IMG/VR virus record: IMGVR_UViG_3300025608_000006
Origin: a virus
Taxonomy: Duplodnaviria; Caudoviricetes
Length of the DNA: 64,000 bases
Reading direction: 5' to 3' (one strand)
The position numbers and the translations under genes are program-made. Below, in pieces: positions 1-20,008 of this stretch. Numbering within the stretch: the stretch's first letter is position 1; every line of letters begins with the position of its first letter. The notes under the pieces are model-generated. The model made no database searches and had not been told where the DNA came from. It saw nothing but the letters and a program-made list of their open reading frames with translations.

Positions 1-941
1 AGCATATGCAAAGTGCGCTCAACTTCTTCAAACTTTCCAGGGAAGCGTATATAATCATCGCGTTCAAAACTTGCATCAACACTAACAGCAAATTTAACTT
101 TGCGAAATTTACTCCATAATTCGATCAGTTCGTCGTCTACAAGAATACCATTTGAATTATAACGTAACAATACATTGTCTTGATAACCTTGCCTAATGAT
201 TTCTTCAATAAACATTTTATGTTCTTTAATCATTAAAGGTTCTCCGCCTGCAAAATAAACTTGTTTTAGGTTAGGAACTTGTGCATATAACTCTTTCCAA
301 AATGATTCTTTTTCGTGCCACTTGTTGTTAAATTCTTTTTTGTCCCATGTCATCTGTTGCTTTACAGATTCATTTTCTAATTGCGGGACTAGTTTTTTCC
401 AATCTGCTACCCACTTTGAGCTATCATGCGGACTACACATAACACATTTAATATTACAAGTATGTCCTAATCGTAAGTCTAGGTATTGCAATTGTTCAGG
501 TACTGTGCCATCTTCTGCTGTTTGCGCAATAAGTTCTTCTACATCAATACCTTCGTCATTCATCCACGTAGCAGTTTCCCAAATACGTTTACTAACAATA
601 CCTTGCGCTTCTTCATCAAAGCAACCTGTGCAACTAGCAGGTATGTTGCCTTCAAGCATGGTAGTACGAACGTTTTTCATAAAGTTACTATTCCATGCTT
701 CCATAGGAGTTACCTTACCAAAGTTAGCGTTACTACCGTCATTGTTTTTAATCAATCCAACCGTATGATTATCACCTGCGCCGCTGGCATTTGCAGTACA
801 GCAAAGTCGCATATCGCCATTAGGGCGTGTTGCCAAGTGTATCCAAGGAAGCACACAAAAGGTACAACTTGATTTAGTTTCTAAGTCGCGCTGAAACTTA
901 CCAAGTCTTGTGTCGGCGCTTGCATACCAGTATTTAGACAT
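1..941 (-). CDS. Radical SAM enzyme with N-terminal SPASM/twitch-like Cys cluster (partial, runs off the window start)
   Basis: Not in the ORF track; translated by hand from ATG at 941: MSKYWYASADTRLGKFQRDLETKSSCTFCVLPWIHLATRPNGDMRLCC...ASCTGCF...LDLRLGHTCNIKCVMC (CxxxCxxC)...FAGGEP...SVDASFERDDYIRFP. The start overlaps the stop of the upstream gene at 934-936. Confidence 0.88.
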   Translation of the reverse strand, partial: MSKYWYASADTRLGKFQRDLETKSSCTFCVLPWIHLATRPNGDMRLCCTANASGAGDNHTVGLIKNNDGSNANFGKVTPMEAWNSNFMKNVRTTMLEGNIPASCTGCFDEEAQGIVSKRIWETATWMNDEGIDVEELIAQTAEDGTVPEQLQYLDLRLGHTCNIKCVMCSPHDSSKWVADWKKLVPQLENESVKQQMTWDKKEFNNKWHEKESFWKELYAQVPNLKQVYFAGGEPLMIKEHKMFIEEIIRQGYQDNVLLRYNSNGILVDDELIELWSKFRKVKFAVSVDASFERDDYIRFPGKFEEVERTLHM

Positions 942-2007
942 CTAATCTTTCTCCTTGCACAAACTGATCTTTAGGCTTACTAAGTTTGTTTACTCCGCAG
1001 GTTCTTGCACAAGTAATTAATTTATGTGTGTTCCAGTATTTGTACCAAACTGTTTGCCAAGAATTAGAATCTATTATATCTTTTATAGAATAATCAAGCG
1101 CATTAGTATTTCCTAAATCTTTAATAAGACTAGAGTACTGTGATTTCATCTTTTGTCTAATATCTTTAGCTAAATCATTAGGATGTATATAATTATATGG
1201 AGTACTTGCTAAAAAGCAACAAGGCATAATGTTTCTTTGTGCGGTTATATAAATTTCTTTTGTTTTTTGTACAAAGCAATCTATTTCACTAGTATCGACT
1301 ATATGTTTATAATTATCGATTGTTTCTTGAGTTATTAGAGTCAGATTGCTTCCTGTTGGCGGTTCTAAATAATATTCAAGTTGTCCTGTTTTATCTAATA
1401 CTTCAAAGTTAGACGAAGCAACAAATCTTGCACTATCTTTTTGTGTAAAATTTGCAAATCCTAATTCTTTGGCGCGACTAGCTGCTTCATTTACTTGATG
1501 CTCGTTGTGTTTAAATTTGATAAATGCCCATTCTGCTATGCCGCCGGCAGCAATAAATGCCTGGGCATTTTTTATTATTGTATTGTAATTTGTACCTATA
1601 CGGTAGAGACTATGTGTATCTTCTAGTCCGTCGATTGCAAATATAACTTTATGACATTTAGGCAGTGATTTAGCAAGCTGTGTCCACCACGAAGACGTTC
1701 GTGCGCTTCCGTTTGTGTGTATTCTAATATTTAGATTTGGATTAACGCCTTTACTATACTGACACATATCTATCAAATTATTATTAATAATAGGGTCGCC
1801 AAAATTGCCACAAAAATAAAATCCTTCAAGTTGATGTAAAATTTCTTTAGTTAGAATTTTTTTAAAATCTTCTATAGTCCAGTCAGTATTTTTAATAAGT
1901 GGGTTTTCTAGTCCGCCATGATAATTTCTACTACACATAGGACAACTTGCCTGACATCTATTAGTTATTTCAAGATGTATATTTTTCAATTCATTAAATT
2001 TAAACAT
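934..2007 (-). CDS. Radical SAM enzyme with C-terminal SPASM/twitch-like domain
   Basis: LEITNRCQASCPMC (CxxxCxxC), GNFGDP, HTNGS, FAIDGLEDTH; C-terminal C..IYITAQRNIMPCC...TCARTC. Confidence 0.88.
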   Translation of the reverse strand: MFKFNELKNIHLEITNRCQASCPMCSRNYHGGLENPLIKNTDWTIEDFKKILTKEILHQLEGFYFCGNFGDPIINNNLIDMCQYSKGVNPNLNIRIHTNGSARTSSWWTQLAKSLPKCHKVIFAIDGLEDTHSLYRIGTNYNTIIKNAQAFIAAGGIAEWAFIKFKHNEHQVNEAASRAKELGFANFTQKDSARFVASSNFEVLDKTGQLEYYLEPPTGSNLTLITQETIDNYKHIVDTSEIDCFVQKTKEIYITAQRNIMPCCFLASTPYNYIHPNDLAKDIRQKMKSQYSSLIKDLGNTNALDYSIKDIIDSNSWQTVWYKYWNTHKLITCARTCGVNKLSKPKDQFVQGERLDV

Positions 2008-2605
2008 TTTTCTTTTTGCCTATAATCATATACCGTGTGTATTTAGATGTTTCAAATTCGCCGCGCCAGTAAGGCTTAATACCACTCATGCGCATAAAAT
2101 CGTCTAAGTCTGTTGCACAACGAATATGCTCGTCTAGTTCAAAATAGTTATTGCTTTGTACTACAAATAGTGCATTGTCTGGCTGATTGTTTAGCCACTG
2201 CTCATATTGTTCTTGTGTAATGTGTTCGCAACTTGTGTTAATAACAATGTTAGCAGGTTCTGTATAGGTACACATGTCTGCTGTTACTGCATCAAATCTT
2301 CCTGCTATTTCATAATTTTTATTAACAGTGTATGCAGTTTCTTGACAGTCTTCATCAATATCTACGCTTGTGATATGTTCTATACTAAGGCTGCTGTTAA
2401 AAAGTATACTTGCAAGCACACCATTCCAACCACCGTAAATTACAATGCGAGCATCGTCGTCTGCATAGTTTACACGTAGAGCATCAGCAAGCCATACTTT
2501 GCTGTTGACTTGTCCTTTCCAAAAACTTTCAAGTGTACGATATCGGTCATTGCTGTTGCGAATTGCATCCATCCAAAATAGTACATCTTGTATATCAACT
2601 CTCAT
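2000..2605 (-). CDS. Class I SAM-dependent methyltransferase-like protein
   Basis: Motif I-like IVIYGGWNGVLA, acidic ITSVDID, VTADMC, VINTSCEH. Start placed at ATG 2605 (MRVDIQD), which overlaps the upstream gene end, rather than GTG 2638. Confidence 0.65.
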   Translation of the reverse strand: MRVDIQDVLFWMDAIRNSNDRYRTLESFWKGQVNSKVWLADALRVNYADDDARIVIYGGWNGVLASILFNSSLSIEHITSVDIDEDCQETAYTVNKNYEIAGRFDAVTADMCTYTEPANIVINTSCEHITQEQYEQWLNNQPDNALFVVQSNNYFELDEHIRCATDLDDFMRMSGIKPYWRGEFETSKYTRYMIIGKKKNV

Positions 2606-3329
2606 TTCGAACCTTTTTATTGTATTCAATTGCTTCACGTAAGATACTCAGCTCAACGTTATTGCGGTGGGCTGTTTTTATGATTGCATTTGTATCTTTA
2701 GGAAAGCAATGTCCACCAAAGCCACGTTCATCTGTAATGAATGTATGACTGTCGCCAATGCGTTCGTCCATGCTTGTATAGTGCGCAACTGCTGAATACT
2801 CTACATCAAGTGCATCGCACAAATCATACAGTTGATTGAAGTATGCAACTTTAAGTGCAAGAAAACTATTGCGAGCATACTTGGCTAAGATAAGTTCACG
2901 AGGCTCTGCAATTTCAATGTTCACTTCGAACACATCTTTCCAAAAGCAGGTATTGGTTCCGCCTATGAGCATTAAACGCATGTTCTGTAGATCTTCTACT
3001 GCACTTGCTGCACGTAGGAACTCTGGGGAGAAGTTTAGCATACGATCAGGAAACGCATCTACTAGCATATCCCAGCCTTCTACAGAAATTGTGCTTTTGA
3101 TTAGTACGGGCACATCTGGTGCTGCTTCGATTACTTCGTACACATTGTCCATGTGACAACTGCCGTCTGGTCGCGGTGGTGTGCTTACACAGACAATTAC
3201 TGCATCAACATCGTCGTAAGAATTAGTATACCCTAATGCCGGGTCATTGATTACAACATCGTGTTTAAACTTTAGAACTTCGTAATGTGCTTTGCCAACG
3301 AACCCATAACCTGCTATTAATATTTTCAT
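2595..3329 (-). CDS. UDP-glucose/GDP-mannose 6-dehydrogenase family, short form lacking the C-terminal domain
   Basis: Rossmann GYGFVG, CVSTP, KSTI, SPEFL, AKYARNSFLALKVAYFN, catalytic GFGGHCFPKD; only 244 aa. Confidence 0.88.
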   Translation of the reverse strand: MKILIAGYGFVGKAHYEVLKFKHDVVINDPALGYTNSYDDVDAVIVCVSTPPRPDGSCHMDNVYEVIEAAPDVPVLIKSTISVEGWDMLVDAFPDRMLNFSPEFLRAASAVEDLQNMRLMLIGGTNTCFWKDVFEVNIEIAEPRELILAKYARNSFLALKVAYFNQLYDLCDALDVEYSAVAHYTSMDERIGDSHTFITDERGFGGHCFPKDTNAIIKTAHRNNVELSILREAIEYNKKVRNES

Positions 3330-4324
3330 ATTTTCCTCTTTGGTATTTTACTATCTGCACTGCTTACACAACTAGGTGTAACGCATTTCTTTGGTGTCTT
3401 AAACAGCGTAAAACCGCCGTCTAACGTGCCTAAAGCTTCGTCATGACAACTGTAGCTGCGCTTTACTTCGTTCTCTCTTATAACGCATCCTTGATAGCCT
3501 GCATTACATTCCCAGCCCTCGAACTTGTTAAAACCAAACGCATTAAATCGTTCTGCTTGATCTATGTAGTAGGTATTTCCGCCTGTGTCTTGCAATTCTA
3601 CTTGTAGTAAAGGTATTATTCCTTTAAATGCTTCTGGGATCGTTTGCGGGAATCCTGTTTGCATTTTGTGTACTTGTTCATCTGTGTATCCGTGTACAAC
3701 GTAGGAGGCAGTAGGGTCGGATTGGGGCTTGAGAGTGACATTAATACCTCTGGAGGCAAATCGTTCAAGACGTTGATAAAGTTCGTCAAACATTTCTGGC
3801 ACCATGACTTGATTGATTGTAACATATACACCTGCTTTCATAAGTTGAAGACATTTGTCTCCAAACTCTTGCTCGTTAGCAAACTCTGAATGATAGCTTG
3901 CTGTAATACTTCTACGTTGCAAACTGCTCGTAGTTTCTATCCATTTGTTCCACCATTTGCTTCCTGGGCTGAGATTGGTCGTCATGTGGATACTCTGGTA
4001 CTCGGGAGTTGCATCACTGCAATAATGGTCTATAACCTTCCCAAAGTATTTATAAGCTGTGGGTTCGCCGCCGCTAAAACTAAAGTGAAAATCTTTAAAA
4101 CCATTTGCACGGGCCTGACGTTTTATTTCATCTATTGTACGAGTGTAAACTTCTAAATCTTGATGGTCAGGAGTGCTGCTGCGAGCATAGGGCCAGCAGT
4201 AGCTACAGTTGTAATTACAAAATCTTGCAAGTATCCAAGACACTGTAAACAAGTTTGTATTTAATAGAGTCTTTTGACCAAAGCTTGTTATATCTTTAAA
4301 TGGTATGTTTTGAAAATTGTTCAT
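3326..4324 (-). CDS. Radical SAM enzyme with C-terminal Cys-rich extension
   Basis: WILARFCNYNCSYC, FSGGEPT, MTTNLS, ITASYH; C-terminal CNAG..SYSC..CVTPSC. ATG at 4324 preferred over TTG at 4336. Confidence 0.88.
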   Translation of the reverse strand: MNNFQNIPFKDITSFGQKTLLNTNLFTVSWILARFCNYNCSYCWPYARSSTPDHQDLEVYTRTIDEIKRQARANGFKDFHFSFSGGEPTAYKYFGKVIDHYCSDATPEYQSIHMTTNLSPGSKWWNKWIETTSSLQRRSITASYHSEFANEQEFGDKCLQLMKAGVYVTINQVMVPEMFDELYQRLERFASRGINVTLKPQSDPTASYVVHGYTDEQVHKMQTGFPQTIPEAFKGIIPLLQVELQDTGGNTYYIDQAERFNAFGFNKFEGWECNAGYQGCVIRENEVKRSYSCHDEALGTLDGGFTLFKTPKKCVTPSCVSSADSKIPKRKI

Positions 4325-4970
4325 GCAACCACTCAAAATTGTTTATAAGGCTAATGTCACTCTTATTAGAAATCCCAAACTTCCTACCAGCATTAGCACC
4401 AGCAAGAGCGTAATTGCCGTAGCGTTTCTCAGAGACTTTTGTACACCACGTATCGAGTCTCTTTTCGGTTTCTTCGTTGTTTTGTCTTGTAATTGTTTTA
4501 CTACTTAGTTTGGCACATTCTCTAAATGCACTACGCCATGTTTCAAATGGACTTGTGTTAAATGCTGTAGTATTTGCAACTTCATCCATAGCAATAAAAT
4601 GTTCACTTATGCTTGTAGTCATATCCGCCTTACTTGTATCCATTTCTATTGTAAGTTTGCGGGGAAATAACTTTACTCCTCCATAGCCATATTCTAATCC
4701 ATTAATAGGATTATTTGCTCTCCATACATGTACATGATCTAATTGATGGTCCGGGACAACATAATCAAAATTAAATGTATTTTTAATAATTGCATCGCCG
4801 TCGACTATCCAAAACATCTTAGTAAAGCATTTCTTTGCTGCCTTTATGTGTGCTTGATGTATTCCTTTAACTCCGTGTACACGTTTAGCCATAGGAAATC
4901 GTGCCTTTAGTGCAGCATAGTTTTCATCTGCAGAAGGCTCTTGGTAACTAATAAAGACTATATCGTACAT
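4296..4970 (-). CDS. GT-A-fold glycosyltransferase-like protein (paralog of 12173-13090)
   Basis: DIVFISYQEP..DENY, RVHGVKGIHQAH, DxD motif FWIVDGDA, YGYGGVKLFP, WRSAFRECAKL; all shared with 12173-13090. The GT assignment rests on the DxD motif and gene context. Confidence 0.55.
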   Translation of the reverse strand: MYDIVFISYQEPSADENYAALKARFPMAKRVHGVKGIHQAHIKAAKKCFTKMFWIVDGDAIIKNTFNFDYVVPDHQLDHVHVWRANNPINGLEYGYGGVKLFPRKLTIEMDTSKADMTTSISEHFIAMDEVANTTAFNTSPFETWRSAFRECAKLSSKTITRQNNEETEKRLDTWCTKVSEKRYGNYALAGANAGRKFGISNKSDISLINNFEWLHEQFSKHTI

Positions 4971-4976
4971 TGTATT

Positions 4977-5005
4977 ATTGTAACACCGTGTTTAATAAAT
5001 GTCAA
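4977..5005 (-). promoter_or_regulatory. sigma70-type promoter TTGACA-17-TACAAT, probably giving a leaderless mRNA
   Basis: TTGACA at 5005-5000, 17-bp spacer, TACAAT at 4982-4977; the ATG of the next gene begins at 4970 and has no SD. Confidence 0.75.
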
Positions 5006-6522
5006 GAAGAGTATCGATTATATAGTTCAGCAAATTCTGGAAATGTTTCGCAGAAATTAGTGTTTCTACGGGCATCATGCTGATCAAAATATTTAACTAG
5101 GTTATAACGATTTCTTTCAACTGCTTCATCGTTATTCAAGTGACGTGCTTTTAATACTGCTAGATTGCGTTCTGCTTTTTTAATTTCAAAGTCATAAAAG
5201 CCTACAAAATCGTCAGTATTTGCATTTGCTTTCATAAATTCAATTGCATCTTCTAAATAATGATCAAACTCTTTAGGTAGTATTTGTATTGCTTGCCATG
5301 CTGGATTTCTTAGTAACGGAATATCAAACCAAATTCGCTGCCTTGGGTGGATTTCGTAGTCGTCATGTGTATTGTACTGATCATATATAGGAATATATTT
5401 TGTTCCTTGATTGCCTTTACTGTACTCGGCTCTTAGAGAAAGTATATATTCTAAAAAGCTTTTAAATTTAGGAACACTCAATGCGTTGAATGTATTGATA
5501 AATGTCATTGTTGTATTATTGGTTTCTGCTAAAAATCTATCTACATTACTTTGCATTGCACTGTAATCTAATCCTGTTCTGATATATTCGGCTTGTTCTT
5601 CTACACTGTCAACACTAACAAATACTGCGACATTTTTTAATGCCATGTTAACATACCAGTTGTTACCTGAGCCAGGATTAAAACGTTCGTCGTCTTTCCA
5701 TATTTGTATTTCTTCTAGTTTCTTCAACTTGGTAATAAATTTGTCCATTAATTCAGATTTTGGAGGTGAAAAGTTACTGGTTACGCTAACCTCTAACCAT
5801 GCGTTAGGATTTTCGTAGATATAATCCAATACTTTAAATGTATTAACGTCCATTAGCGGCTCTCCGCCTGTGATACGAAATACTTCAAGTTTTTTGTATA
5901 ACTCCGGCCACCATTTCCAAAATGCTGTTACATAGGGATTATCGGCTTGCGGAACTTTTAGTGGCATTAATCCATCTTTTGCTAGATACTCGGTATTATT
6001 ATGTTCTGCCTTTTCGCCTTTGTCATTTATAATACTATAAGATCCGAACTTGTTGATTTCTTCTTCCCATGCTGTGCTAAGGTGCGGACTACAATATGAA
6101 CATTTAAGATTACATGCTTGATTAAAGTTTACTTCTACGTAACGCGGAGTTATATCTCCGGTATCTAATGCTTCAAAAACATCCGTTTTAGAATTTTGTG
6201 CCCATTGCTCGCCGCTGCGATAAATTCTATCACTGCGTCCGCCTTGATCTTCAATTTTCCAACAGTAATTACATCCTTCAGGACGTTTACCTGCGAGCAT
6301 CTCTTTGCGTTCTTGTTTCTTTTGTTTTGTATTATGTAGAGCACTTGGATTTTCTTTAATTTCTTCCGCATCAATTTTATGCAAGGGAGGATGATAACAA
6401 CTATGTGTTGTGCCGTTGGTCAAGTGCATGGACATCTGTGCCCATTTTGCATAGCACATGCTTGACGAAATACGTTTTAATTGGGATTCTGCTACATCAG
6501 CAGCATCATTATAATTACTCAT
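5002..6522 (-). CDS. Radical SAM enzyme with N-terminal twitch-like domain
   Basis: MCYAKW..THSCYH..GCNYCW; EVNFNQACNLKCSYC; ITGGEPL; VSVDSVEEQAEYIRTGL. Confidence 0.88.
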   Translation of the reverse strand: MSNYNDAADVAESQLKRISSSMCYAKWAQMSMHLTNGTTHSCYHPPLHKIDAEEIKENPSALHNTKQKKQERKEMLAGKRPEGCNYCWKIEDQGGRSDRIYRSGEQWAQNSKTDVFEALDTGDITPRYVEVNFNQACNLKCSYCSPHLSTAWEEEINKFGSYSIINDKGEKAEHNNTEYLAKDGLMPLKVPQADNPYVTAFWKWWPELYKKLEVFRITGGEPLMDVNTFKVLDYIYENPNAWLEVSVTSNFSPPKSELMDKFITKLKKLEEIQIWKDDERFNPGSGNNWYVNMALKNVAVFVSVDSVEEQAEYIRTGLDYSAMQSNVDRFLAETNNTTMTFINTFNALSVPKFKSFLEYILSLRAEYSKGNQGTKYIPIYDQYNTHDDYEIHPRQRIWFDIPLLRNPAWQAIQILPKEFDHYLEDAIEFMKANANTDDFVGFYDFEIKKAERNLAVLKARHLNNDEAVERNRYNLVKYFDQHDARRNTNFCETFPEFAELYNRYSS

Positions 6523-7442
6523 TTAAATCTCTCATGTAAATATTCTGCAACTTCTATACTGATAACTTCGCCCGGGTGTTGTAGATCTCTTGCAGTTTTA
6601 TCAATCTTAAAGTGTTTTTCGGCATTTAGGATTTGGGCAGTAGAATAAAAAAAGGATATACTAGAATACTTGCTGCGTTCTTTCCATAACCACTTTCCAA
6701 TTAATCCTTGATTATAAGTAAGGCCTATTTCGTGGGAAGGATCTGCATATGTAAGTTGCCATAATTTACTAACGTCAGTTTCTTGACTCGTGTGAGGAGC
6801 TTTGTGTCGTCCGTCCCAAGGCCCAGATTTGTGTCTGCCGATCTTTGAAAAAAATTCAAATCTATCCGTAGGAGTCCAAATAGTAGCTACTGCGTATGGT
6901 GTTTCAAAGCTTTCCAATATTTTTGTAGAATTATATAAAATTAAACTATTCGAACCTCCTGGAACTCCTAAATTAATTACTGGGCGCCCGGATAGTCGTT
7001 CTAAATGAAATGATATTGTCTCGTCGTCCGATAGGCCAATGCCGTATGTACAAGAACAACCTAATAATACAATAGAGTTTTTCCAATCAATTTGATCCCA
7101 TTCTAGAGTACGGAAACCTGAACTATTAACTGTATATGTAACCTCTTTTGTTAGATATTTCCAATCTTTACCTTTTTTTCTTTTACTACTGTTAAATCTA
7201 TTTTCGTCGTCTCCTTGCAACCATAGATATTTTCCAGAAACTTCTGGAGAATCAATTTTATTAAATGTGCCGACTGGATTTATTCCGAAAGGGTGCTCTG
7301 TATCCGTTAGATACAATGGAAAATTGTCATCTATCTGTTTATCATCAAATAAAGGAGGTGATTTATTAGATTTTTCATTCGTATTTTGGCTTTGAGTGAC
7401 CGAACGAAATCTTGCCATCATTTTTTTATTTTTTTTACTCAT
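6519..7442 (-). CDS. SGNH/GDSL-hydrolase-like protein
   Basis: Block I-like LLGCSCTYG, block II-like INLGVPGGSN, terminal D..HPG (RDLQHPG). Confidence 0.55.
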   Translation of the reverse strand: MSKKNKKMMARFRSVTQSQNTNEKSNKSPPLFDDKQIDDNFPLYLTDTEHPFGINPVGTFNKIDSPEVSGKYLWLQGDDENRFNSSKRKKGKDWKYLTKEVTYTVNSSGFRTLEWDQIDWKNSIVLLGCSCTYGIGLSDDETISFHLERLSGRPVINLGVPGGSNSLILYNSTKILESFETPYAVATIWTPTDRFEFFSKIGRHKSGPWDGRHKAPHTSQETDVSKLWQLTYADPSHEIGLTYNQGLIGKWLWKERSKYSSISFFYSTAQILNAEKHFKIDKTARDLQHPGEVISIEVAEYLHERFK

Positions 7443-7450
7443 ATTAGCCT

Positions 7451-9777: not shown

Positions 9778-10779
9778 TTAAATTAACCGATCCGTCCATG
9801 TTTTTGGAGTTTTGTAATTTACAATCTCTAGTGGAAATGTGTAGTCAAACGGCTTTGTGCCTCGTTTTTTAATATAGTCAACAGTATATTCAACTGCTGT
9901 TTCTAAATTGGTAGTTGTTTTATAATTTAATAACTTGCGAGCTTTATCTGCACTACACATTGCATGTTTAACTTCTTGAGGACGGTCATCGACATGTATA
10001 GGATCTAAATTACAACCTGTTTTATTGGCTACTAGTTTTGCTAAATTTTTGATATTTATTGTTCCTTCATCTGGTCCAATATTTACTATTTGGCTTGATA
10101 TATTTTTATCTAATGCGAGTTTTTCAAGACACTGAATACAGTCATCAATGTAACTAAAGCATCGTGTTTGTTCGCCATCGCCGTATATAATAGCAGGATT
10201 GCCTTGTAAATTTCTATTGATCATAATACTCATTACATTTCGGAATGGATCATCATAACGCTGCCTTGGTCCAACAATGTTGTGCGGCACAGCAATATTC
10301 CATTCCATACCGTGTACTTCACTTAGCGTAGTCAGTACTTGTTCGCCTGCTACTTTAGCAATGCCGTAAGGATCAACTGGGGCAGGTGTCTGTGTTTCAA
10401 CAAACGGAATCTGTTGATTTCCGTAACGTGCCATACTAGTACAGTATACAAAACGTTTTACCTTGTTTTCAAGTGCTGCACTAATTGTAGATACCGTTGC
10501 TTGAAATATATTCTTAGTAATAAAATCTGGGCTTACTACACTTAGACCTTCATGAGCAGTTGCAGCAGTGTGTATAACAATATCTATATCTTTCATTATA
10601 TCTGCCATGCGTTCTCTGTCGCAACAATCTACTTTGTACAAAGTAGCTTTGTGATGTACATTATCCTCATAACCGCCAATCAGTGTATCGTTGCCAGATA
10701 CTTCGTGACCAAGTTCTATCATACGATCTGCTAAATGACTTCCTAGAAATCCTGCAATGCCTGTTATAAAAATTTTCAT
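9778..10779 (-). CDS. NAD-dependent nucleotide-sugar epimerase/dehydratase (extended SDR)
   Basis: GIAGFLG, IHTAA, TSMARYG, YGIAK (YxxxK), HNIVGP, GDGEQTRCFSYIDD. Confidence 0.92.
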   Translation of the reverse strand: MKIFITGIAGFLGSHLADRMIELGHEVSGNDTLIGGYEDNVHHKATLYKVDCCDRERMADIMKDIDIVIHTAATAHEGLSVVSPDFITKNIFQATVSTISAALENKVKRFVYCTSMARYGNQQIPFVETQTPAPVDPYGIAKVAGEQVLTTLSEVHGMEWNIAVPHNIVGPRQRYDDPFRNVMSIMINRNLQGNPAIIYGDGEQTRCFSYIDDCIQCLEKLALDKNISSQIVNIGPDEGTINIKNLAKLVANKTGCNLDPIHVDDRPQEVKHAMCSADKARKLLNYKTTTNLETAVEYTVDYIKKRGTKPFDYTFPLEIVNYKTPKTWTDRLI

Positions 10780-12176
10780 AGTTTTCCTAAATTTTGTTCA
10801 CTTGCTAAAGACTTACAATGATTCCAAAAATTATCCATTTCAGGAAAAGTTTCTAAAAAGTTTGTATTTCTTCTACGATCCATCTCTGTAAACCAATTAT
10901 AAAAATCTGCACGACCTTCTTGTACTCGGGTTTCGTCATAATTAGCTGTTGCAAAGTAATCTCGAACTCGACGAAACTTTTGATATTCTAACTCTGTAAA
11001 TTTGGTCGGATCGTAATCGTCTTTGTTATCGTTAATAAATTGTAAAATTTTATCAAAATACGGCAAAAATTCTTCTTTTGGTAAAATCATCATATCATAC
11101 TGTAAAGGTTCTTTTAAATACGGTGTGTCAAATCTAATGCGCCGGCCATATCCTCCTGGATTCATTGTTGGTTGATATTTTGTTCGCCAGTCTAAAATCT
11201 TTTGTAAAAAATCTGTAAACGAAGTCACACTTAAAATATTAAATGTACACATAATACTAACAGGTGCATTTGTAGTTGCTATATAGGTTTCTAAATTTTG
11301 TTCCCACAACTCTGTTTTAAGTCCAGTACGAATATATTCGGCTTTTTTGCCCCAAGAGTCTAAACTTGAAAATAATTTAAAGTTTTTAATCTTTTTATTT
11401 TCCACTAGGCTTTTTACATTTGTTGCTAGTTTTTCTACAAGTGCTGGCTTAACACCTAGATTGCTATTTAAATTTAATTCTAATTTAGGCTTTGCTTCTT
11501 CTTGTAAAAGGTCAAATAGTCTCCAAGTACTACGGTGCATCAAAGGTTCGCCGCCGGTGAGACGTAAAATGTTTAGTGTTTTACTAACTTCTGGCCACCA
11601 TTTCCACCAAGCAGCAATATACGGATTTTCTTCTTCAGCATATGGTTTAAACCAGTCAACATTTAATGTATGATTTTTAACTGGCATTGGCCCGTGTTTT
11701 TTTATTTCTGCATCATACGAACTACTTGCCATAGGATGACAGTATCCACATTTAAAATTACATTCGTTACTAAACGCCAATTCAATATATTCAGGATTAA
11801 TATTAAAATCCCAAGGACTATTAACAATTTCTTCTAATCTATGCTGATTATAAATGCCTGCATTACGTTCGTGCCTATCACTAATATGTGTATCACTAAG
11901 ACCTTCAACATTCCAGCAGTATTGACAGCCTTTGGGCTTTTCGCCTACCAGCATTAAAGCACGTTCTTTTTTCTTTTCTATCGTATTATGAAGTGCAGAA
12001 GGATCCTTTTCAATTTCTTCAAGAGGTATATGATGAGGTGCTGGATGATAACAACTATGTGTGTCACCAGTATGCAAATAAATTGTAGTATGATGCCACT
12101 TTGCTAAACAGAAAGTAGGACTAATCTTATTTGTAATCTCTTTAGTTTGTGTTATTCTGTCAGTTTCATTACTCAT
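10776..12176 (-). CDS. Radical SAM enzyme with N-terminal twitch-like domain (paralog of 5002-6522)
   Basis: FCLAKW..THSCYH..GCQYCW; ELAFSNECNFKCGYC; LTGGEPL; SLDSWGKKAEYIRTGL. Confidence 0.88.
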   Translation of the reverse strand: MSNETDRITQTKEITNKISPTFCLAKWHHTTIYLHTGDTHSCYHPAPHHIPLEEIEKDPSALHNTIEKKKERALMLVGEKPKGCQYCWNVEGLSDTHISDRHERNAGIYNQHRLEEIVNSPWDFNINPEYIELAFSNECNFKCGYCHPMASSSYDAEIKKHGPMPVKNHTLNVDWFKPYAEEENPYIAAWWKWWPEVSKTLNILRLTGGEPLMHRSTWRLFDLLQEEAKPKLELNLNSNLGVKPALVEKLATNVKSLVENKKIKNFKLFSSLDSWGKKAEYIRTGLKTELWEQNLETYIATTNAPVSIMCTFNILSVTSFTDFLQKILDWRTKYQPTMNPGGYGRRIRFDTPYLKEPLQYDMMILPKEEFLPYFDKILQFINDNKDDYDPTKFTELEYQKFRRVRDYFATANYDETRVQEGRADFYNWFTEMDRRRNTNFLETFPEMDNFWNHCKSLASEQNLGKL

Positions 12177-13090
12177 AGTTTTTCTATAAACCTTTGATTG
12201 TCAGTTCTTGACGGATGCTGGTACACTGCTTTAAAAAATTTACTTTGCTGTGCATCTAATGGTTGTTCTGCGATAGGTATATCTAGTTGACTGATTAACT
12301 TAATACCGTATTCTTCAATTTCATAATCGACATCTTCAATTGATTCAAACGACACTTTCCATAAATCGTTCAAGTATTCAAAGTCACGTACTTGCACGTA
12401 ATCCCAGTCTGTACACATTGTCATATACAATCCTGCTCGTGTTCCAAGTATTGCCCAGTCACCGTTTTCTACATCTTTGCCTATCATACTCCATATGTAT
12501 AGCCAGTGCAAGCAACGCCAGTGATTATTCTTTAGTTCTTCTTTTGAAATTCTTACGCCGCGATCAGTTGCAAGTTTAACACCTTCTCTAAAACCTGCTC
12601 TCCATGCTTGTGCAGGAGTTTCGTTGTTGTACACGTCAGAATAACAACTATTCATTTGAATGTATTGTGCATCCCAGCAAAAGTCTACTTGAGCATGTGC
12701 ATTATCAGGGTCTGCATTTTCATGTGTTTTCATATTCAATACATACTCACGAGGCCAACATTTAAGTCCGCCGTTGCCGTACATTAGTCCATTAATCTCA
12801 TTACGGCCGCACCAGCTGATAACAGTATTTTTCAAATCTGCATGTTCATCGAAGTCAATTTCTTGATTTAAAAAATCTTCACGTATACGGTTGTCACCGT
12901 CTACTGTAATAAATCTATCTGTCTCGCTTAGTTCTGCACAAGCTTTGTGTGCGGCGTCTGAGCCTTCTACACCGTGTACACGTTTAGCCCACGGAACTTT
13001 TTTACACAAGTCAGCGTAGTTTTTTTCTGCATTAGGTTCGTCATAACTAAGATAGATAATATCGTAGTCAATTGGTTTAAATTTTGCCAT
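12173..13090 (-). CDS. GT-A-fold glycosyltransferase-like protein (paralog of 4296-4970)
   Basis: DIIYLSYDEPNAEKNY, RVHGVEGSDAAH, FITVDGDN (DxD), YGNGGLKCWP, WRAGFREGVKL. Confidence 0.55.
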   Translation of the reverse strand: MAKFKPIDYDIIYLSYDEPNAEKNYADLCKKVPWAKRVHGVEGSDAAHKACAELSETDRFITVDGDNRIREDFLNQEIDFDEHADLKNTVISWCGRNEINGLMYGNGGLKCWPREYVLNMKTHENADPDNAHAQVDFCWDAQYIQMNSCYSDVYNNETPAQAWRAGFREGVKLATDRGVRISKEELKNNHWRCLHWLYIWSMIGKDVENGDWAILGTRAGLYMTMCTDWDYVQVRDFEYLNDLWKVSFESIEDVDYEIEEYGIKLISQLDIPIAEQPLDAQQSKFFKAVYQHPSRTDNQRFIEKL

Positions 13091-14430
13091 TATATAATCT
13101 CATGAGCATAACTTTCAAAATATTTTGCTGTGTATATACTTACATCAGTATCACTACTTTCAGACTCGAATATGAACGGAATTGCCGTTAGACTATCTGA
13201 TAATAATTCTCCAACAGTAAATTCTAGACTTCTAAAAAGTACATTTGGATCATATTTTGATGTTACACTAAAATATAATACTTCCGTAGGTTTATATCCA
13301 CTAGTTAATAGGAATTTTTTAGTATGTGGATTTAATAAAATACTCCAATAATTTCCAAAAGTGTTTTGTTGAATAATTATGTCGTATTCTTTATCAACTT
13401 GTACTTGATGAAGTTGTTTTCCTGATAGAATAATTTGTCCATTTTTTAAATTTACCGGCATATGCAAGTCTAATTGTATATCTCGATATGTAATTTTTTC
13501 AGTTAAGTCAACTAAATCAACTTCTGCACACATATCATCAACATAATACAAAAGTGTAGTAGGATTAGAATAGAAAAAGATACTTGTTTTATCTTTACTA
13601 AAATCCTGCATTACAAGTTGTATGCTGTATATACTGTTATCGTTAAGTACAACGTCTCCAGGAGTAATAGTTTTAACTACCGGAAGTTTTTTATTTGCAT
13701 CTGAATATAATTTTACATTGCTAACAACAATTTCTGCATTATCCATAGTAAATTCAGTATATGCTGGTTGATCTTCTAAGAGTCTATAAACTACTCCGTT
13801 AATCCAAACATGCTGTCCTGACAAATGAGATAATTCCTTATACCAAACATCTACGTGTATACCCACGTATTCTGGAATCATGGTTAGTTTTTCTGCTGAA
13901 TGGGTTTGTGTAGGCAACGAAGTTATTAGTACGTCCTCTACAAAAAGAATATGTTCATCTTTGTCAAATACCTCAGAAGGAACTAGATCTGTCTTTAATT
14001 TATAAACATTATCTTTAAACCAAACACACTGGTTTTTACTATAACTATGATTATCGTTATACATATAAATGTCAACACCATCGTAAACTTTTTCTATAGA
14101 AAAATGCTCATCATGTGTATGCTTAATTACAGGCAATTGATAACACATTGTATCAGCTGTTCGATGAGAGTCGTCGTATGCTACTTCTTTTAGTCTTATT
14201 TCTTTAACACTGACATCATAAAAAATAGCATACTCATCTGTACGGCGTTCGCCAGTAAGTATAGACTGAACTTCGTTCGTATCAATAGGAAAAATCTTGT
14301 ACTCTTCATCAGGAATATTCTTACTGCTAATTTTGTATATTTTTCCGTTATCGCTGTCATAATAGACATAGGATTTTGTCCTATCACTGCTAACTTGTAT
14401 TCTTTTAATTAAATTTTGTAAATCAGACAT
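13090..14430 (-). CDS. Hypothetical protein with two small aromatic beta-rich (CBM5/12-like) modules
   Basis: 446 aa; internal YNDNHSYSKNQCVWFKDNVYKL and WYKELSHLSGQHVWINGVVYRL. Confidence 0.7.
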   Translation of the reverse strand: MSDLQNLIKRIQVSSDRTKSYVYYDSDNGKIYKISSKNIPDEEYKIFPIDTNEVQSILTGERRTDEYAIFYDVSVKEIRLKEVAYDDSHRTADTMCYQLPVIKHTHDEHFSIEKVYDGVDIYMYNDNHSYSKNQCVWFKDNVYKLKTDLVPSEVFDKDEHILFVEDVLITSLPTQTHSAEKLTMIPEYVGIHVDVWYKELSHLSGQHVWINGVVYRLLEDQPAYTEFTMDNAEIVVSNVKLYSDANKKLPVVKTITPGDVVLNDNSIYSIQLVMQDFSKDKTSIFFYSNPTTLLYYVDDMCAEVDLVDLTEKITYRDIQLDLHMPVNLKNGQIILSGKQLHQVQVDKEYDIIIQQNTFGNYWSILLNPHTKKFLLTSGYKPTEVLYFSVTSKYDPNVLFRSLEFTVGELLSDSLTAIPFIFESESSDTDVSIYTAKYFESYAHEII

Positions 14431-15265
14431 TTGTTAGACTCCTGTATCTTTCTATTGCAGGCGATTTTGTTACGAAGTCATTTTCAGTATAGTGCAGAAT
14501 TCCTGTTTGTGCATAATTGCCTATTTTTATACTACCATCTTTAGAAATATACACACCTACACGATCTTGCCAGCTAGATTGTATTTCATTCCATCCTTGG
14601 CAGTAAGGTTTCATATGTGTAAAATTAGGAAACTTAGCAATTTTATTTGTAATTGCATCTTCACAATCTAGTATACTAGTAACGATAGCAGCACATACAT
14701 CAATACTTAGATGTGTAGGGCGAGATGTAGCCACTAAATGTTGTTCGTAAAACGCTTGCCAATTGTTTACTATTAGTTCTAACCAAGCATAAAACTCTTG
14801 TGCAAATTTGCATTTCTTAAAATAATGAAATCCGCTAAACAAGTTTGGTAAATTGTTTTCTATAAATGTTTTTCTATAGTAACTAGTATCTGCTGCTTCG
14901 CCTCTATAATTTAGTACATTGCTAACAAAAAACATTTCATAATTAGACAAAAACTTCCACCACATGTCAATGTTTTGTAACACTAACATATCTGTATCCA
15001 TTACAATTGTTTCGTCATACGGACTAGCATGATATAATTTCCATCTATTTTCAATTTTCCAGTCAGTGTCTTTGGCTGCATCGTTAAACGGAATAGGAAT
15101 AATTTTATCAAAGAGTTTTTGATATTCTTCTGGCACAATATTATTTGTTACTAAACTAATAGGAGTATCATTATGCGCTCGTAAACTCATTGCTAATAAT
15201 GATGCTTGTTCAACGTAGTTGTCTATTTCATTATTTTGCGCAAGAACCATTATACCTTTACTCAC
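14423..15265 (-). CDS. Nucleotide-diphospho-sugar transferase-like (GT8-like) protein
   Basis: LYHASPYDETIVMDTDML (DxD), FSGFHYFKK, NFTHMK. Confidence 0.65.
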   Translation of the reverse strand: MSKGIMVLAQNNEIDNYVEQASLLAMSLRAHNDTPISLVTNNIVPEEYQKLFDKIIPIPFNDAAKDTDWKIENRWKLYHASPYDETIVMDTDMLVLQNIDMWWKFLSNYEMFFVSNVLNYRGEAADTSYYRKTFIENNLPNLFSGFHYFKKCKFAQEFYAWLELIVNNWQAFYEQHLVATSRPTHLSIDVCAAIVTSILDCEDAITNKIAKFPNFTHMKPYCQGWNEIQSSWQDRVGVYISKDGSIKIGNYAQTGILHYTENDFVTKSPAIERYRSLTNV

Positions 15266-16109
15266 CAGTGAACTCCTTATCGATAATTCTATTAAGACTA
15301 ATTTTATTCATGACATGAATTGTTTGTCCTTGTGTTTTTAATGCTGTGTATTCTCCAAGATAGTCTTCCTTTTCTACTAAAAACAGCATTTCATCATCTA
15401 CAAGTTTCCACAAAATGTCTTTATCTGTAGTATACAACATAGTTCCTGGTAGTTGTTGTGCAAAATCTCCCTTTGTAAAGCCATTTAACATATGTATAGC
15501 GATACTAAATGCAAAATCATTCCTAAACAAACTAGAAGTAATTTGATATGCCCTTCTATAATGATTCCATTCTTGCTCTATATGAGCAACAAGATCAAAA
15601 AACACTTTGTTTATTTCTGTTTTTCTAAAAAACACAACAGTAGCCCAGTAAAAGTCGACACTAGGATCACTTATTTTATCAAATTCAGTTTCGTCTCTAA
15701 CTTTTGCAATATCGCTGGAGTTTTTATAAATTAAAAAATCTGAGGTAGAATTAAAACAATCTTTCAACAAACTGTTTGATACAATATAATCTGTATCCAT
15801 TAATAGAGTTTCGTCATATGGCGTAAGGTCATATACACTTGCACGATTATTATTTTTAAAGTTAGCTGTTTTTTTAGTCAAGCCGCCGTCGAAAAAATAT
15901 CGCATATTAGATGCGCTGGTATACTCTAATTCGATAATATTATCAAAGTCATCAGTGCCGAATGTTGTGGTTAGATATTCAGCACTATCAGTAGCAACTG
16001 TTACCGGAATATCTAAATATTTTTTTATACGCTTTGCAAGAAATACTGCTTGTTTAACATAGTCAATATGTCCATTATTTCGTGCAATTAAAAATACACC
16101 TTTACTCAT
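15258..16109 (-). CDS. Nucleotide-diphospho-sugar transferase-like (GT8-like) protein, paralog of 14423-15265
   Basis: VYDLTPYDETLLMDTDYI (DxD), YWATVVFFRK, FRNDFAFSIA, IHVMNK. Confidence 0.65.
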   Translation of the reverse strand: MSKGVFLIARNNGHIDYVKQAVFLAKRIKKYLDIPVTVATDSAEYLTTTFGTDDFDNIIELEYTSASNMRYFFDGGLTKKTANFKNNNRASVYDLTPYDETLLMDTDYIVSNSLLKDCFNSTSDFLIYKNSSDIAKVRDETEFDKISDPSVDFYWATVVFFRKTEINKVFFDLVAHIEQEWNHYRRAYQITSSLFRNDFAFSIAIHMLNGFTKGDFAQQLPGTMLYTTDKDILWKLVDDEMLFLVEKEDYLGEYTALKTQGQTIHVMNKISLNRIIDKEFTGE

Positions 16110-16452
16110 AATTGACTAGTTTCTCTACACTTCTATTCTTTTTAAGTTTAGCATATGCAGTATAATAGCTGTTAGATGCTACAGTGTATTTGTTTATAAT
16201 TTCGCCATAAAATTCTTCAAGATTTTCAATCATACACGGAATATTATTGTCATCAGTAATTACAACTTCGTCTTGATCAGCAGATACCATTGCACTTACA
16301 AAGGTAATTAGTTCACGAGTAAGCGTAAACTGTGATCCTTTGTAAAAATGAATTAATTCTTCTTGATATTTTTCTGCTAACAGTCTTTTTTGATTATTGA
16401 GGGTTAGCATATAATTAGAAAAGTCTAGTGCTTTTTCTAAACGTTCGTCCAT
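16102..16452 (-). CDS. Hypothetical protein, first gene of the sugar/radical-SAM operon
   Basis: 116-aa ORF with SD AGGAG at 16464-16460; stop overlaps the next start. Confidence 0.8.
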   Translation of the reverse strand: MDERLEKALDFSNYMLTLNNQKRLLAEKYQEELIHFYKGSQFTLTRELITFVSAMVSADQDEVVITDDNNIPCMIENLEEFYGEIINKYTVASNSYYTAYAKLKKNRSVEKLVNYE

Positions 16453-17505: not shown

Positions 17506-17526
17506 TTATCTCTTTACTGTTAAGTA

Positions 17527-17534: not shown

Positions 17535-17563
17535 TAAAAAATATTTAGAAAATTAAATGCTGA

Positions 17564-19981: not shown

Positions 19982-20008
19982 TTATGTAACCCCTAGTGCT
20001 ATTAGTAT

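Follow-up and report, generated by a model that had tools for sequence, protein, structure and literature searches.

Islands beside tail fibre genes, with cassettes encoding GT8 glycosyltransferases, UGD and radical SAM proteins, have already been described, without an assigned function, in pelagimyophages (PMC7029224). Zaragoza-Solas et al. regarded these islands as host-recognition clusters and proposed that they modify the O-chain (PMC7029224). In the cultured Ralstonia phage RsoM2USA, the island core adjoins virion genes confirmed by MS (PMC8504454). The first-pass annotation of the DNA described here had held that no such phage pathway is characterised, which is true biochemically, but similar islands were already on record in the pelagimyophages.

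The sequence analysed here, a window of 64,000 nucleotides, comes from an uncultured marine giant (jumbo) phage. On the minus strand of positions 3-16452, 17 ORFs run head to tail and form one tightly coupled operon, in agreement with the 16-kb unit of at least 17 coupled genes that had been proposed. Thirteen of its 16 junctions overlap, by 1-29 nt, and the remaining three are gaps of 0, 8 and 31 nt. The operon sits behind tail-fibre PHROGs at 18497-24008, which also confirms the proposed adjacency to the tail module. The operon genes and their two upstream neighbours are:

3-941, minus strand: rS1, N-twitch radical SAM protein, cut by the window edge
934-2007, minus strand: rS2, radical SAM protein (C18xxxC22xxC25) with a C-terminal Cys-rich region
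2000-2605, minus strand: MT, Rossmann/class-I-methyltransferase-like protein
2595-3329, minus strand: short NDP-sugar-dehydrogenase homologue, 244 aa
3326-4324, minus strand: rS3, radical SAM protein with a C-terminal Cys-rich (SPASM/twitch-like) region
4296-4970, minus strand: DGDb, short GT-A-type paralogue of DGDa (D57-G-D59)
5002-6522, minus strand: rS4, N-twitch radical SAM protein
6519-7442, minus strand: SG1, SGNH/GDSL-like protein (GCS130, G159, N165, D286xxH289)
7451-8461, minus strand: SG2, SGNH/GDSL-like protein (GCS26, G108/G111, N114, H316)
8461-9777, minus strand: G10, GT-B-fold glycosyltransferase
9778-10779, minus strand: extended SDR of the NDP-sugar epimerase/dehydratase family
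10776-12176, minus strand: rS5, N-twitch radical SAM protein
12173-13090, minus strand: DGDa, GT-A-fold glycosyltransferase (D64-G-D66) with a C-terminal helical domain
13090-14430, minus strand: u446, 446-aa protein with no family match
14423-15265, minus strand: GTa, GT8-like DxD glycosyltransferase (D90-T-D92, H258)
15258-16109, minus strand: GTb, GT8-like (glycogenin/LgtC-type) DxD glycosyltransferase (DTD at residue 105)
16102-16452, minus strand: s116, conserved soluble 116-aa protein, first gene of the operon
16519-18487, minus strand: st1 and st2, paralogous fibre-module proteins directly upstream of the operon, candidate acceptors

The last ORF, rS1, runs past the window edge; on the same contig (L159) its full length is 468 aa, and one further co-directional radical SAM gene lies beyond it. 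The paralogues st1 and st2 (E 2.7e-30) align with the C-terminal portion of ORF355 from RsoM2USA, a protein whose N-terminus matches the tail fibres. None of the 17 operon products contains a transmembrane segment (no hydrophobic 19-mer exceeds KD 1.38).

Based on the current evidence, the island is best read as a soluble cytoplasmic pathway that builds and radical-edits a short unusual glycan, probably on fibre-module proteins, a proposal to which we give slightly less than an even chance. A glycan or sugar-tailoring role is the best reading because the DxD proteins have glycosyltransferase folds, the gene order is conserved and the radical SAM proteins show no clean grouping with maturases. 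Host NDP-sugars would be reshaped by the epimerase-type SDR together with the shortened dehydrogenase homologue, the five glycosyltransferases would attach sugars sequentially, and SG1, SG2 and MT would put on or take off ester and methyl groups. The acceptor would most likely be a phage-made fibre-module protein, either st1/st2 or the tail fibres. The folds, motifs, gene content, synteny, operon structure and solubility of the products were observed directly, and we infer every substrate, the order of the steps and this acceptor; if the proposal is true, the island diversifies or shields the host-recognition apparatus.

The five glycosyltransferases, identified by profile or fold, represent three folds (two GT8-like, two GT-A and one GT-B) and support a glycan pathway. 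GTa and GTb are paralogues (E 1.8e-13) whose joint profile, A1, matches glycogenin-1 (GT8) across the nucleotide-binding half with an E-value of 3.3e-5, and the DxD motif and C-terminal His are invariant in their alignment. GTa is 38% identical to RsoM2USA ORF352. For the AlphaFold2 model of DGDa (pLDDT 87.8), the Foldseek matches include SunS/ThuS, WrtF, TarS and PBCV-1 A64R (E 1e-4 to 1e-3), and residues 1-156 give a VIA Z of 10.3 to a Leptospira GT, B4GALNT1 and STIV A197; the DGDa alignment has 39 invariant columns. Protein- or capsid-glycosylating enzymes (PBCV-1 A64R, SunS/ThuS, COLGALT1, GalNAc-T2) are among its fold neighbours, a likeness of the predicted structure that is not specific. 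DGDb, aligned within A2, is 32% identical to DGDa (E 8e-36) and 44% identical to RsoM2USA ORF348, and relatives frequently have DGD-type proteins fused in tandem, reaching 1388 aa. In substance, the four proteins first described as DxD GT-A-like do have a glycosyltransferase fold, GTa and GTb by profile, DGDa by structure and DGDb by paralogy.

G10 had been called GT10-like. Its model (pLDDT 87.6) has a GT-B fold and scores highest in VIA with H. pylori alpha-1,3-FucT (Z 12.5), but this ties with the 12.4 obtained for T4 beta-glucosyltransferase (BGT). In Foldseek T4 BGT ranks top (E 2.7e-4), and the model also matches T4 AGT. That the model fits T4 BGT as well as any GT-B favours DNA hypermodification, in which the glycosyltransferases and tailoring enzymes would decorate a modified phage base and so evade restriction and CRISPR. 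The solubility of all the enzymes, an early-type promoter and the resemblance of the radical SAM core to nucleotide-acting enzymes would suit this as well. However, the T4 BGT score ties with those of GT10 and GT4 enzymes, and neither a base hydroxymethylase nor a DNA kinase, transglycosylase or DNA-binding module is encoded in the island. Five glycosyltransferases, the SGNH proteins and a carbamoyltransferase in relatives point to an oligosaccharide rather than a DNA base. With the island kept inside the fibre region and bacterial homologues in GT2/SDR/UGD loci, we consider DNA hypermodification very unlikely.

The remaining sugar-related genes also support a glycan pathway, through the SDR, the NDP-sugar dehydrogenase domains and the SGNH blocks. 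The predicted SDR is borne out by Pfam Epimerase (157.9 bits), GxxGxxG at residues 7-13 and Y138xxxK; it scores under the cut-off of each of the NCBIfam LegB, RmlB and GalE models. Near residue 113 it carries TSMARYG and, because the Asp-Glu pair of 4,6-dehydratases is missing, its sequence is most likely that of an epimerase. The proposed UDP-sugar dehydrogenase stands only in part. Its NAD-binding N-terminal and central domains (Pfam UDPG_MGDP_dh 86 bits, N domain 36 bits) and the catalytic-Cys motif GGHCFPKD (Cys208) are present, but no UDP-binding C-terminal domain was found with Pfam or when the gene call was checked on contig L159, which counts against the glycan reading. It scores 129 bits against TIGR03026 (cut-off 190), and L048, L049 and L081 carry comparably short versions.

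The two SGNH-like proteins are likewise recovered, as tentative assignments from motifs and weak statistics. The SGNH blocks of SG1 are invariant, it matches the NCBIfam LA_2486 SGNH esterase model with an E-value of 4.9e-4, and 5 of its 18 orthologues match Pfam GDSL families (best E 1.3e-4). SG2 lacks the block-V Asp and gave no match in HMM searches; its SGNH motifs are invariant across 17 orthologues, its Atlas neighbours bear SGNH/GDSL names, and its structure has a TM of 0.55-0.71 to a GDSL-like cluster. For MT, the Rossmann/methyltransferase-like motifs GGW(N/Y)G, D93xD95 and NTSCEH agree with the earlier assignment, but only 4 of 10 orthologues have methyltransferase matches, all weak (best E 0.0015), and its profile has no significant match in the PDB (E 0.45), so that MT may tentatively be called a methyltransferase. 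The weakness of the MT and SGNH assignments counts against the glycan reading. It is 33% identical to its RsoM2USA orthologue, ORF347.

All five radical SAM proteins that had been reported are present, each with CxxxCxxC. Three belong to the NCBIfam family NF033640 ("N-terminal twitch"; cut-off 170 bits), namely rS1 (294.9 bits on 313 visible aa), rS4 (314 bits) and rS5 (309.7 bits). To our knowledge, this widespread family has no characterised member and no known reaction. rS5 contains radical SAM cluster Cys 139/143/146 and N-terminal auxiliary Cys 23/42/84/87, all seven of which are invariant among 30 aligned sequences, and rS4, which is 35% identical to rS5, has Cys 137/141/144 plus Cys 23/42/84/87. 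The rS5 orthologues form a clade with support of 99/95 and the rS4 orthologues a separate one with support of 100/100. rS3, the start of which (4324) was taken from the called gene on contig L159, passes Pfam Radical_SAM (50.5 bits, cut-off 29.5), and rS2, at 24.5 bits, lies just below the cut-off and has the motif. The best NCBIfam matches of rS3, STM4011 (47 bits) and prokaryotic viperin (40 bits), are both far under their cut-offs, and rS2 matches W_rSAM_matur at E 1.8e-14, yet far under the cut-off of that model.

SPASM/twitch radical SAM enzymes are known mostly as peptide or protein maturases. This favours an alternative in which the N-twitch and the two C-terminal-cluster enzymes modify a phage protein (fibre, st1/st2 or other virion protein) or a peptide by epimerisation, cross-linking or hydroxylation-type chemistry, while the glycosyltransferases glycosylate separately. 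The weak W_rSAM_matur match of rS2 points the same way, as do the next-best NCBIfam matches of rS1, the peptide maturases XyeB, YhhB and ScmE (E ~1e-8), which count against the glycan reading. In bacteria, NF033640-family arrays occur without glycosyltransferases, and a non-sugar substrate is possible for this reason; a weak PqqD-like gene at one bacterial locus and the 2OG oxygenases added in relatives also fit. The first-pass annotation had set its proposal against a grouping with maturases, and the three NF033640 members do stand apart, since curated maturase models score them at 34 bits or less, compared with 295-314 for their own family; the secondary matches of rS1 are less clear-cut. 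Moreover, the closest solved structures to the NF033640 profile are viperin (8e-6), BlsE (4e-3) and MoaA (7e-3), and its N-terminal Cys region aligns with the BtrN twitch domain (E 0.016), the peptide maturase SkfB giving a weaker match (0.13). The former have nucleotides, nucleoside sugars or a cyclitol as substrates, MoaA being a cofactor enzyme, and they support the glycan pathway. Additionally, the operon gaps, at most 31 nt, leave no room for a precursor-like ORF, and s116 looks globular. Protein or peptide modification thus appears rather improbable.

In the glycan pathway, the radical SAM enzymes would carry out C-H-activating sugar edits, for example oxidation, epimerisation, deoxygenation or C-C bond formation, and the three N-twitch enzymes would use a second 4Fe-4S cluster as an electron conduit or substrate anchor. 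The radical-tailored glycan first proposed survives as the best reading in its glycan part, and from these comparisons we infer the action on sugars. In contrast to BtrN and NeoN, with which an analogy had been drawn, three of the enzymes have an N-terminal twitch domain.

Conservation in relatives, another expectation of the earlier proposal, is strong. The order fibre protein, s116, GT8, GT8, GT-A, radical SAM is kept at all 24 distinct assessable IMG/VR loci and in RsoM2USA, and 22 of the 24 loci have an st homologue no more than 1.5 kb upstream of s116. This synteny and the virion-gene neighbours in RsoM2USA support a fibre-module acceptor; against the fibre link, an rSAM-SDR-GT-B module adjoins DNA ligase or Clp protease, not fibres, in some relatives. 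Among 80 viral loci related to this one, radical SAM genes are linked to GT-B genes at 70 (the G10 family being the second most strongly linked), to GT-A at 61 and to GT8-like at 52, and relatives carry extra sugar-tailoring genes (NodU/CmcH carbamoyltransferase, B12 radical SAM, 2OG oxygenase). Bacterial NF033640 members are concentrated in Bdellovibrionota. Glycosyltransferase or NDP-sugar genes are nearby at four of seven inspected loci, and on a complete Bdellovibrionales chromosome a member has five GT2 genes, two SDR genes and one UGD gene as neighbours. The linkage and these contexts support the glycan pathway; the other three loci, with no glycan genes nearby, count against it.

Two promoter-like sites were found:

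16479-16507, minus strand: sigma-70-type promoter-like site (TTGACA-17-TATACT), then AGGAG, in the 66-nt gap before s116
4977-5005, minus strand: internal sigma-70-type promoter-like site (TTGACA-17-TACAAT, with TG), consensus match only, in the only sizeable internal gap of the operon

The first ranks highest among 89 promoter-like sites (11/12 matches), in a region where their total count is at chance level. Its motif is also found ahead of the first gene in 11 out of 31 distinct relatives, each of them from the closest clade; in distant relatives, TATAAATA-like T4-late-type motifs precede the operon instead. The late-type motifs support a fibre-module acceptor; virion decoration is harder to square with the sigma-70-type promoter present here and in the closest relatives. 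Being probably early, this promoter suits a host-directed role, in which the soluble glycosyltransferases, especially the GT8-like ones, and the tailoring enzymes would work from the cytoplasmic side on host precursors of the LPS core, O-unit or capsule, and the changed surface would exclude competing phages or stop progeny from re-adsorbing. GT8 enzymes are best known for LPS core synthesis, which favours such remodelling, as do the polysaccharide-type loci of bacterial NF033640 homologues and the O-chain proposal for pelagimyophages (PMC7029224). It is unlikely, however, given 17 products with no membrane protein, flippase, polymerase or lipid-carrier (Und-P) transferase, the tight fibre-module linkage (22-24 of 24 loci) and the late-type motifs in distant relatives. 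About five glycosyltransferases and at least seven radical SAM enzymes would also be a large cost to a lytic jumbo phage for exclusion alone.

Two marine metatranscriptome libraries contain exact-match fragments from the operon and fibre genes, which may hint at operon transcription or reflect DNA carry-over. Homologues of the first gene product, s116, are present at 43 related loci in viruses; eight of its residues are invariant, and it is 34% identical to its RsoM2USA counterpart, ORF354. It has no match in Pfam, NCBIfam or PHROG, and its one Atlas lead, to DUF4376, is sub-threshold (0.89). Its sequence resembles that of a conserved globular protein and shows none of the Cys, Ser or Thr patterning expected for precursor peptides. 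Full-length homologues of u446 are confined to the closest contigs, and in 27 loci its position holds a shorter relative of ~200 aa.

The operon consists of 17 minus-strand open reading frames running from position 16452 down to 3; 13 of the 16 junctions overlap by 1–29 nt, and the other gaps are 0, 8, and 31 nt. The most economical reading of this gene set is a soluble pathway that would assemble and edit a glycan, with the radical SAM enzymes performing C-H-activating chemistry on sugars and the product most likely being placed on proteins of the adjoining fibre module. Taken as a whole, this reading is tentative and falls a little short of an even chance. Its glycan part alone, leaving the acceptor aside, is probable, while the acceptor is much less certain. 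The GC content of the island is 0.32–0.40 compared with 0.31–0.44 in the rest of the window, and its recent acquisition from a foreign source is not indicated by this agreement. A search of GenBank phages for DNA nearly identical to 1–16452 returned no match, and eight of ten island proteins had no family among the PHROGs. A second record of the same contig (L159) provides the full length of rS1 (468 aa), the radical SAM gene at the edge of the window, followed by a co-directional gene for a 323-aa radical SAM protein. Beyond these lie a divergent unit encoding a 301-aa radical SAM protein, a 435-aa radical SAM/SPASM protein, and a 225-aa protein, and then a 514-aa radical SAM gene (L159:11067-21074). 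The island therefore extends past window position 1 and is cut by the window.

The window derives from a T4-related jumbo myovirus of marine origin that has not been cultured. Its genes matched PHROGs for gp55, the late sigma factor, for the gp46/47 nuclease, and for baseplate components, namely a gp6-like wedge gene (985 bits) and hub genes resembling gp25 and gp5. The baseplate genes share 68–73% DNA identity with jumbo phages of the Rak2/GAP32/CBB/SCTP-2 type, and the phage belongs to the jumbo Rak2/GAP32/RsoM2USA-like lineage. Sequencing runs that contain the stretch come from several studies and are labelled marine or seawater metagenome. Three features outside the operon are as follows.

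18497-24008, minus strand: three paralogous tail-fibre genes (PHROG)
24644-40009, minus strand: single ORF of 5121 aa, flanked by the gp6-like baseplate wedge gene on one side and the p200/tail-fibre genes on the other
55983-56432, plus strand: 149-aa ORF that separates the gp46/47-like nuclease genes from the next gene, matching the PHROG 'NAD synthetase' and homing-endonuclease PHROGs

The fibre paralogues have their first ~230–320 residues in common and diverge in their C-terminal parts, and a Peptidase_G2/intramolecular-chaperone autoproteolytic domain (Pfam, 25 bits) lies at the end of the protein encoded at 18497-19981. At the position corresponding to the 5121-aa ORF, RsoM2USA, a cultured relative, has ORF361, a virion protein of >288 kDa. 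The 5121-aa ORF may correspond to the giant protein of VrlC type that borders the host-recognition clusters of pelagimyophages. The 149-aa ORF is probably a mobile endonuclease insertion.

The first-pass annotation had counted five CxxxCxxC radical SAM enzymes in the operon, and the motif was indeed found in all five (rS1–rS5). Three of them belong to the N-twitch family NF033640 (N_Twi_rSAM), in which membership is defined by a whole-protein score above the NCBI curated cut-off of 170 bits. The scores were 294.9 bits for rS1 (3-941), which is a partial protein, 314.0 for rS4 (5002-6522), and 309.7 for rS5 (10776-12176). Across 30 aligned phage sequences, the four N-terminal cysteines (C23, C42, C84, and C87) and those of the CxxxCxxC cluster motif (C139, C143, and C146) are invariant. 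In rS1, a Pfam SPASM match at residues 29–107 lies N-terminal to the Radical_SAM domain. The three enzymes are deeply diverged paralogues, with 24–35% identity, that share one operon with glycosyltransferases alongside. The family is abundant, with more than 5,500 relatives among 8,000 candidates scored, and we found no paper that describes it. Because NF033640 has no characterized member and no known reaction, membership does not assign a reaction to these proteins. The core components of the island are without prior biochemical study.

Comparison of the family profile with the PDB identified viperin (E 8e-6) and an unnamed 4Fe-4S protein (PDB 7wzv, E 1e-5) as the nearest solved relatives, followed by BlsE (E 4e-3) and MoaA (E 7e-3). 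The N-terminal cysteine region resembled the twitch domain of BtrN (E 0.016), and the peptide maturase SkfB was a weaker match (E 0.13). These marginal matches lean toward small-molecule, nucleotide, or sugar substrates. Sugar-acting enzymes of the BtrN/NeoN/DesII/BlsE type likewise possess a radical SAM core, which is the part that aligns with BlsE, and an auxiliary 4Fe-4S (twitch) domain; the similarity in sequence is marginal. The radical SAM genes of the island adjoin NDP-sugar and glycosyltransferase genes as theirs do. In contrast, the twitch domain is N-terminal in the island enzymes and C-terminal in the BtrN/NeoN/DesII/BlsE type. The remaining two enzymes, rS2 and rS3, are not members of NF033640, scoring only 36 bits each. 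The rS3 protein reaches 50.5 bits with Pfam PF04055, for which the gathering score is 29.5; rS2 contains the CxxxCxxC motif, scores 24.5 bits with PF04055, below that threshold, and matches a radical SAM maturase model (E 1.8e-14). Both have additional cysteines at the C-terminus and fit no curated family. Action of the radical SAM enzymes on a protein or peptide would agree with the maturase match of rS2 and less well with the weak match to SkfB, and it is considered quite unlikely.

A scan of species-representative genomes located the family mainly in metagenome-assembled genomes (MAGs) of the Bdellovibrionota, often in tandem arrays. The genes near the radical SAM genes at four bacterial loci were as follows.

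Complete Bdellovibrionales chromosome: five GT2, two SDR, and a full-length UGD
Halobacteriovoraceae locus: two GT2, a weak QueC-like gene, and DGDa-like and MT-like genes
Third locus: UDPGP and at least nine further radical SAM genes
Fourth locus: a GT4-type glycosyltransferase (Pfam Glycos_transf_1), a GDSL lipase, and a sugar nucleotidyltransferase

Three further bacterial loci contained no glycan genes among the neighbours. A maximum-likelihood tree placed rS5, rS4, and rS1 apart, in three phage clades that have Bdellovibrionota neighbours of their own. This topology implies either several exchanges between phages and bacteria or ancient paralogy. On contigs from Bdellovibrionota or unclassified MAGs (L095/L165, L119, L133, and L144), up to about nine genes for N-twitch or related radical SAM proteins were seen in tandem.

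A profile of GTa and GTb, the GT8-like pair (29 sequences), matches glycogenin-1 and -2 (E 3e-5 to 2e-3), and the aligned part is confined to the first ~100 profile positions. Both D90 and D92 of the DxD motif are invariant, as is a distal H258, and neither protein reaches Pfam Glyco_transf_8. In the structural model of DGDa (pLDDT 87.8), residues 1–156 form a GT-A domain with Z scores of 10.3–8.2 to many GT-A enzymes, while nucleotidyltransferases that share this fold come out lower, at Z 8.9 or below. Foldseek matched the model to SunS/ThuS, WrtF, TarS, and PBCV-1 A64R with probabilities of 0.96–1.0. DGDb is a short paralogue of DGDa. The acidic residues of the DxD motif, D64 and D66 in DGDa, are invariant, and the pair is assigned to the GT-A fold. 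Profile searches of the PDB with DGDa and DGDb gave no significant match. In relatives (L010:15301-19467, L021:17054-19594, and others), DGDb often lies within fusions of 350–1388 aa that resemble tandem DGD repeats, and Pfam found no informative partner domain in ten fused DGDb or SDR homologues.

G10, a protein of 438 aa, had been described as GT10-like. Its GT-B fold is clear (model pLDDT 88), but GT10 is not a distinct best match, as the Helicobacter pylori FucT (Z 12.5) ties with T4 BGT (Z 12.4), and GT4-type enzymes score Z 11. HMM and PDB profile searches provided no sequence-level match for G10, and a tblastn search of cultured phages returned none. DNA hypermodification might be read from the T4 BGT match, which FucT equals; this explanation is very unlikely.

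The SDR protein matches Pfam Epimerase with 157.9 bits and has the features of an extended SDR (G7xxG10xxG13 and Y138GIAK). No equivalog model reaches its cut-off; judging by its motifs, the protein is more likely an epimerase than a 4,6-dehydratase. The proposed UDP-sugar dehydrogenase retains the NAD-binding and central domains and the GGHCFPKD cysteine motif, while the C-terminal UDP-sugar-binding domain is absent from this 244-aa protein. With 129 bits against TIGR03026, below the cut-off of 190, it is therefore a truncated homologue and not a canonical member. Because three relatives have short forms like it, it is not simply a pseudogene. In the SGNH-like protein SG1, blocks I (GxS), II (G), III (GxN), and V (DxxH) are all invariant; an SGNH model matches with E 4.9e-4, and 5 of 18 orthologues match GDSL Pfam families. 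SG2 retains Ser, Gly, Asn, and His and lacks the Asp; its assignment comes from SGNH-named Atlas neighbours alone. When the two were compared profile to profile, the last block alone was aligned (probability 20%), and neither had a significant match in PDB profile searches. The methyltransferase-like protein MT possesses a Gly-rich motif I and an acidic motif II. Weak methyltransferase matches were obtained for 4 of 10 orthologues (E 0.0015–0.0056), and the best PDB profile match was not significant (E 0.45). The first operon gene encodes s116, a conserved, globular-looking protein of 116 aa that was rejected as a precursor peptide. No PHROG family was assigned to s116 or to u446, a 446-aa product of the operon, and no Atlas family to s116.

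In IMG/VR, at least 583 stretches encode a relative of rS5. In the 80 loci kept, the order is fixed as fibres, st (the fibre-module proteins directly upstream of the operon), s116, GTb, GTa, DGDa, and rS5. A variable part follows, consisting of SDR, GT-B, SG2, SG1, rS4, DGDb, rS3, and MT, or of arrays of rS1-like radical SAM genes. The full core was present in 24 of 24 distinct loci with enough upstream sequence, with an st homologue within 1.5 kb in 22. De novo clustering placed the GT-B family (70 loci) first in linkage to the radical SAM genes, ahead of GT-A (61) and GT8-like (52), and relatives additionally encode 2OG oxygenases (22), B12 radical SAM proteins (16), and NodU/CmcH carbamoyltransferases (7). 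Three contigs with the phage core, fibre, and p200 genes (L110, L140, and L145) are binned in MAGs labelled Fischerella, Haliscomenobacter, and Legionellales; they are probably phage contigs that were mis-binned.

Among 50,697 GenBank phage records, the core is carried only by Ralstonia phage RsoM2USA (MG752970). Its ORF347-354 are orthologues of MT, DGDb, an N-twitch radical SAM, DGDa, GTa, GTb, and s116 in the same order, with 33–44% identity, and they adjoin fibre and giant-protein genes. All were annotated as hypothetical, and three products of the neighbouring fibre/giant-protein region were found in virions by MS (PMC8504454). This version is minimal: it has a single radical SAM and lacks SDR, GT-B, and SGNH genes. 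Because the phage is cultured, the function of the island is directly testable. It is conceivable, if doubtful, that the NF033640 enzymes constitute a new glycan-editing class, fixed partners of GT-A and GT-B enzymes, which jumbo phages and Bdellovibrionota use and by which the phages would put radical-tailored sugars on their own host-recognition proteins.

The operon products include no flippase, polymerase, or lipid-carrier transferase, and hydrophobic segments of transmembrane grade are absent from all of them, indicating that the pathway works on a cytoplasmic acceptor. This bears on the published reading of similar islands as remodelling the host envelope. The host recognition cluster (HRC) of pelagimyophages and cyanomyophages is a variable island inside the structural region, next to the tail fibres (Zaragoza-Solas et al., 2020, PMC7029224). 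In these marine T4-related myophages, it contains GT8 glycosyltransferases, UDP-glucose dehydrogenase, and radical SAM cassettes, and it is defined by its place in the structural module, with VrlC and gp14 on either side, and by the combination of tail fibres with glycosyltransferase, LPS-type, and radical SAM genes (PMC7029224). The description is purely genomic and was interpreted as host O-chain modification (PMC7029224). The present island is similar in fibre adjacency and gene classes, a likeness of gene content and position, and no gp14 was seen in the window. The HRC phages are also much smaller than the jumbo lineage, in which RsoM2USA has 344 kb, and the fixed core of s116, two GT8, GT-A, and N-twitch radical SAM is a feature of the present island that the HRC description does not define. 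Because the general island type was known, the window is a further, well-preserved instance and not a first sighting. Envelope remodelling has this precedent in its favour and is nevertheless unlikely here.

The proposed glycosylation of the phage's own fibre proteins, the preferred reading, would have counterparts in other viruses. Virus-encoded virion glycosylation is carried out by PBCV-1 A64R, the mimivirus fibril clusters, and mycobacteriophage capsid and tail glycosyltransferases, with the glycosyltransferase genes located beside structural genes. Among the GT-A enzymes matched by the DGDa model are A64R and mimivirus R699. To our knowledge, none of these systems includes a radical SAM enzyme, and we found no paper joining jumbo phage, radical SAM, and glycosyltransferase. 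The island ties an abundant radical SAM family with an uncharacterized reaction to glycosyltransferases in a fixed arrangement beside host-recognition genes. If its product is a radical-tailored glycan on the fibres, it would be the first virion glycan whose synthesis depends on radical SAM chemistry, would represent a new chemistry for phage–host recognition or shielding, and would give NF033640 a function.

Two marine metatranscriptome libraries contain short contigs that agree with operon genes and pieces of fibre genes at zero mismatches; these contigs demonstrate presence in RNA libraries, not transcription, strand, or level, and could be carried-over DNA. The matched operon stretches and the best promoter-like site of the region are as follows.

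3784-4035, 5558-5763, 6838-7030, 10495-10701, 12576-13184, and 15888-16141: operon stretches matched by metatranscriptome contigs
16479-16507, minus strand: sigma-70-type promoter-like site TTGACA-17-TATACT, then AGGAG, in the 66-nt gap before s116

Sigma-70-like sites occur at the chance level in total (89 compared with 83 expected), so that weight can be given only to where the top sites lie and to their conservation. The site before s116 is conserved as TTGACA-17-TATA(C/A)T in the closest clade of the window. More distant relatives (among L002-L081) have TATAAATA-like T4-late motifs at that position, several of them preceded by a terminator-like hairpin. The promoter type before the operon thus differs by lineage, and the timing of the operon may therefore differ between lineages.
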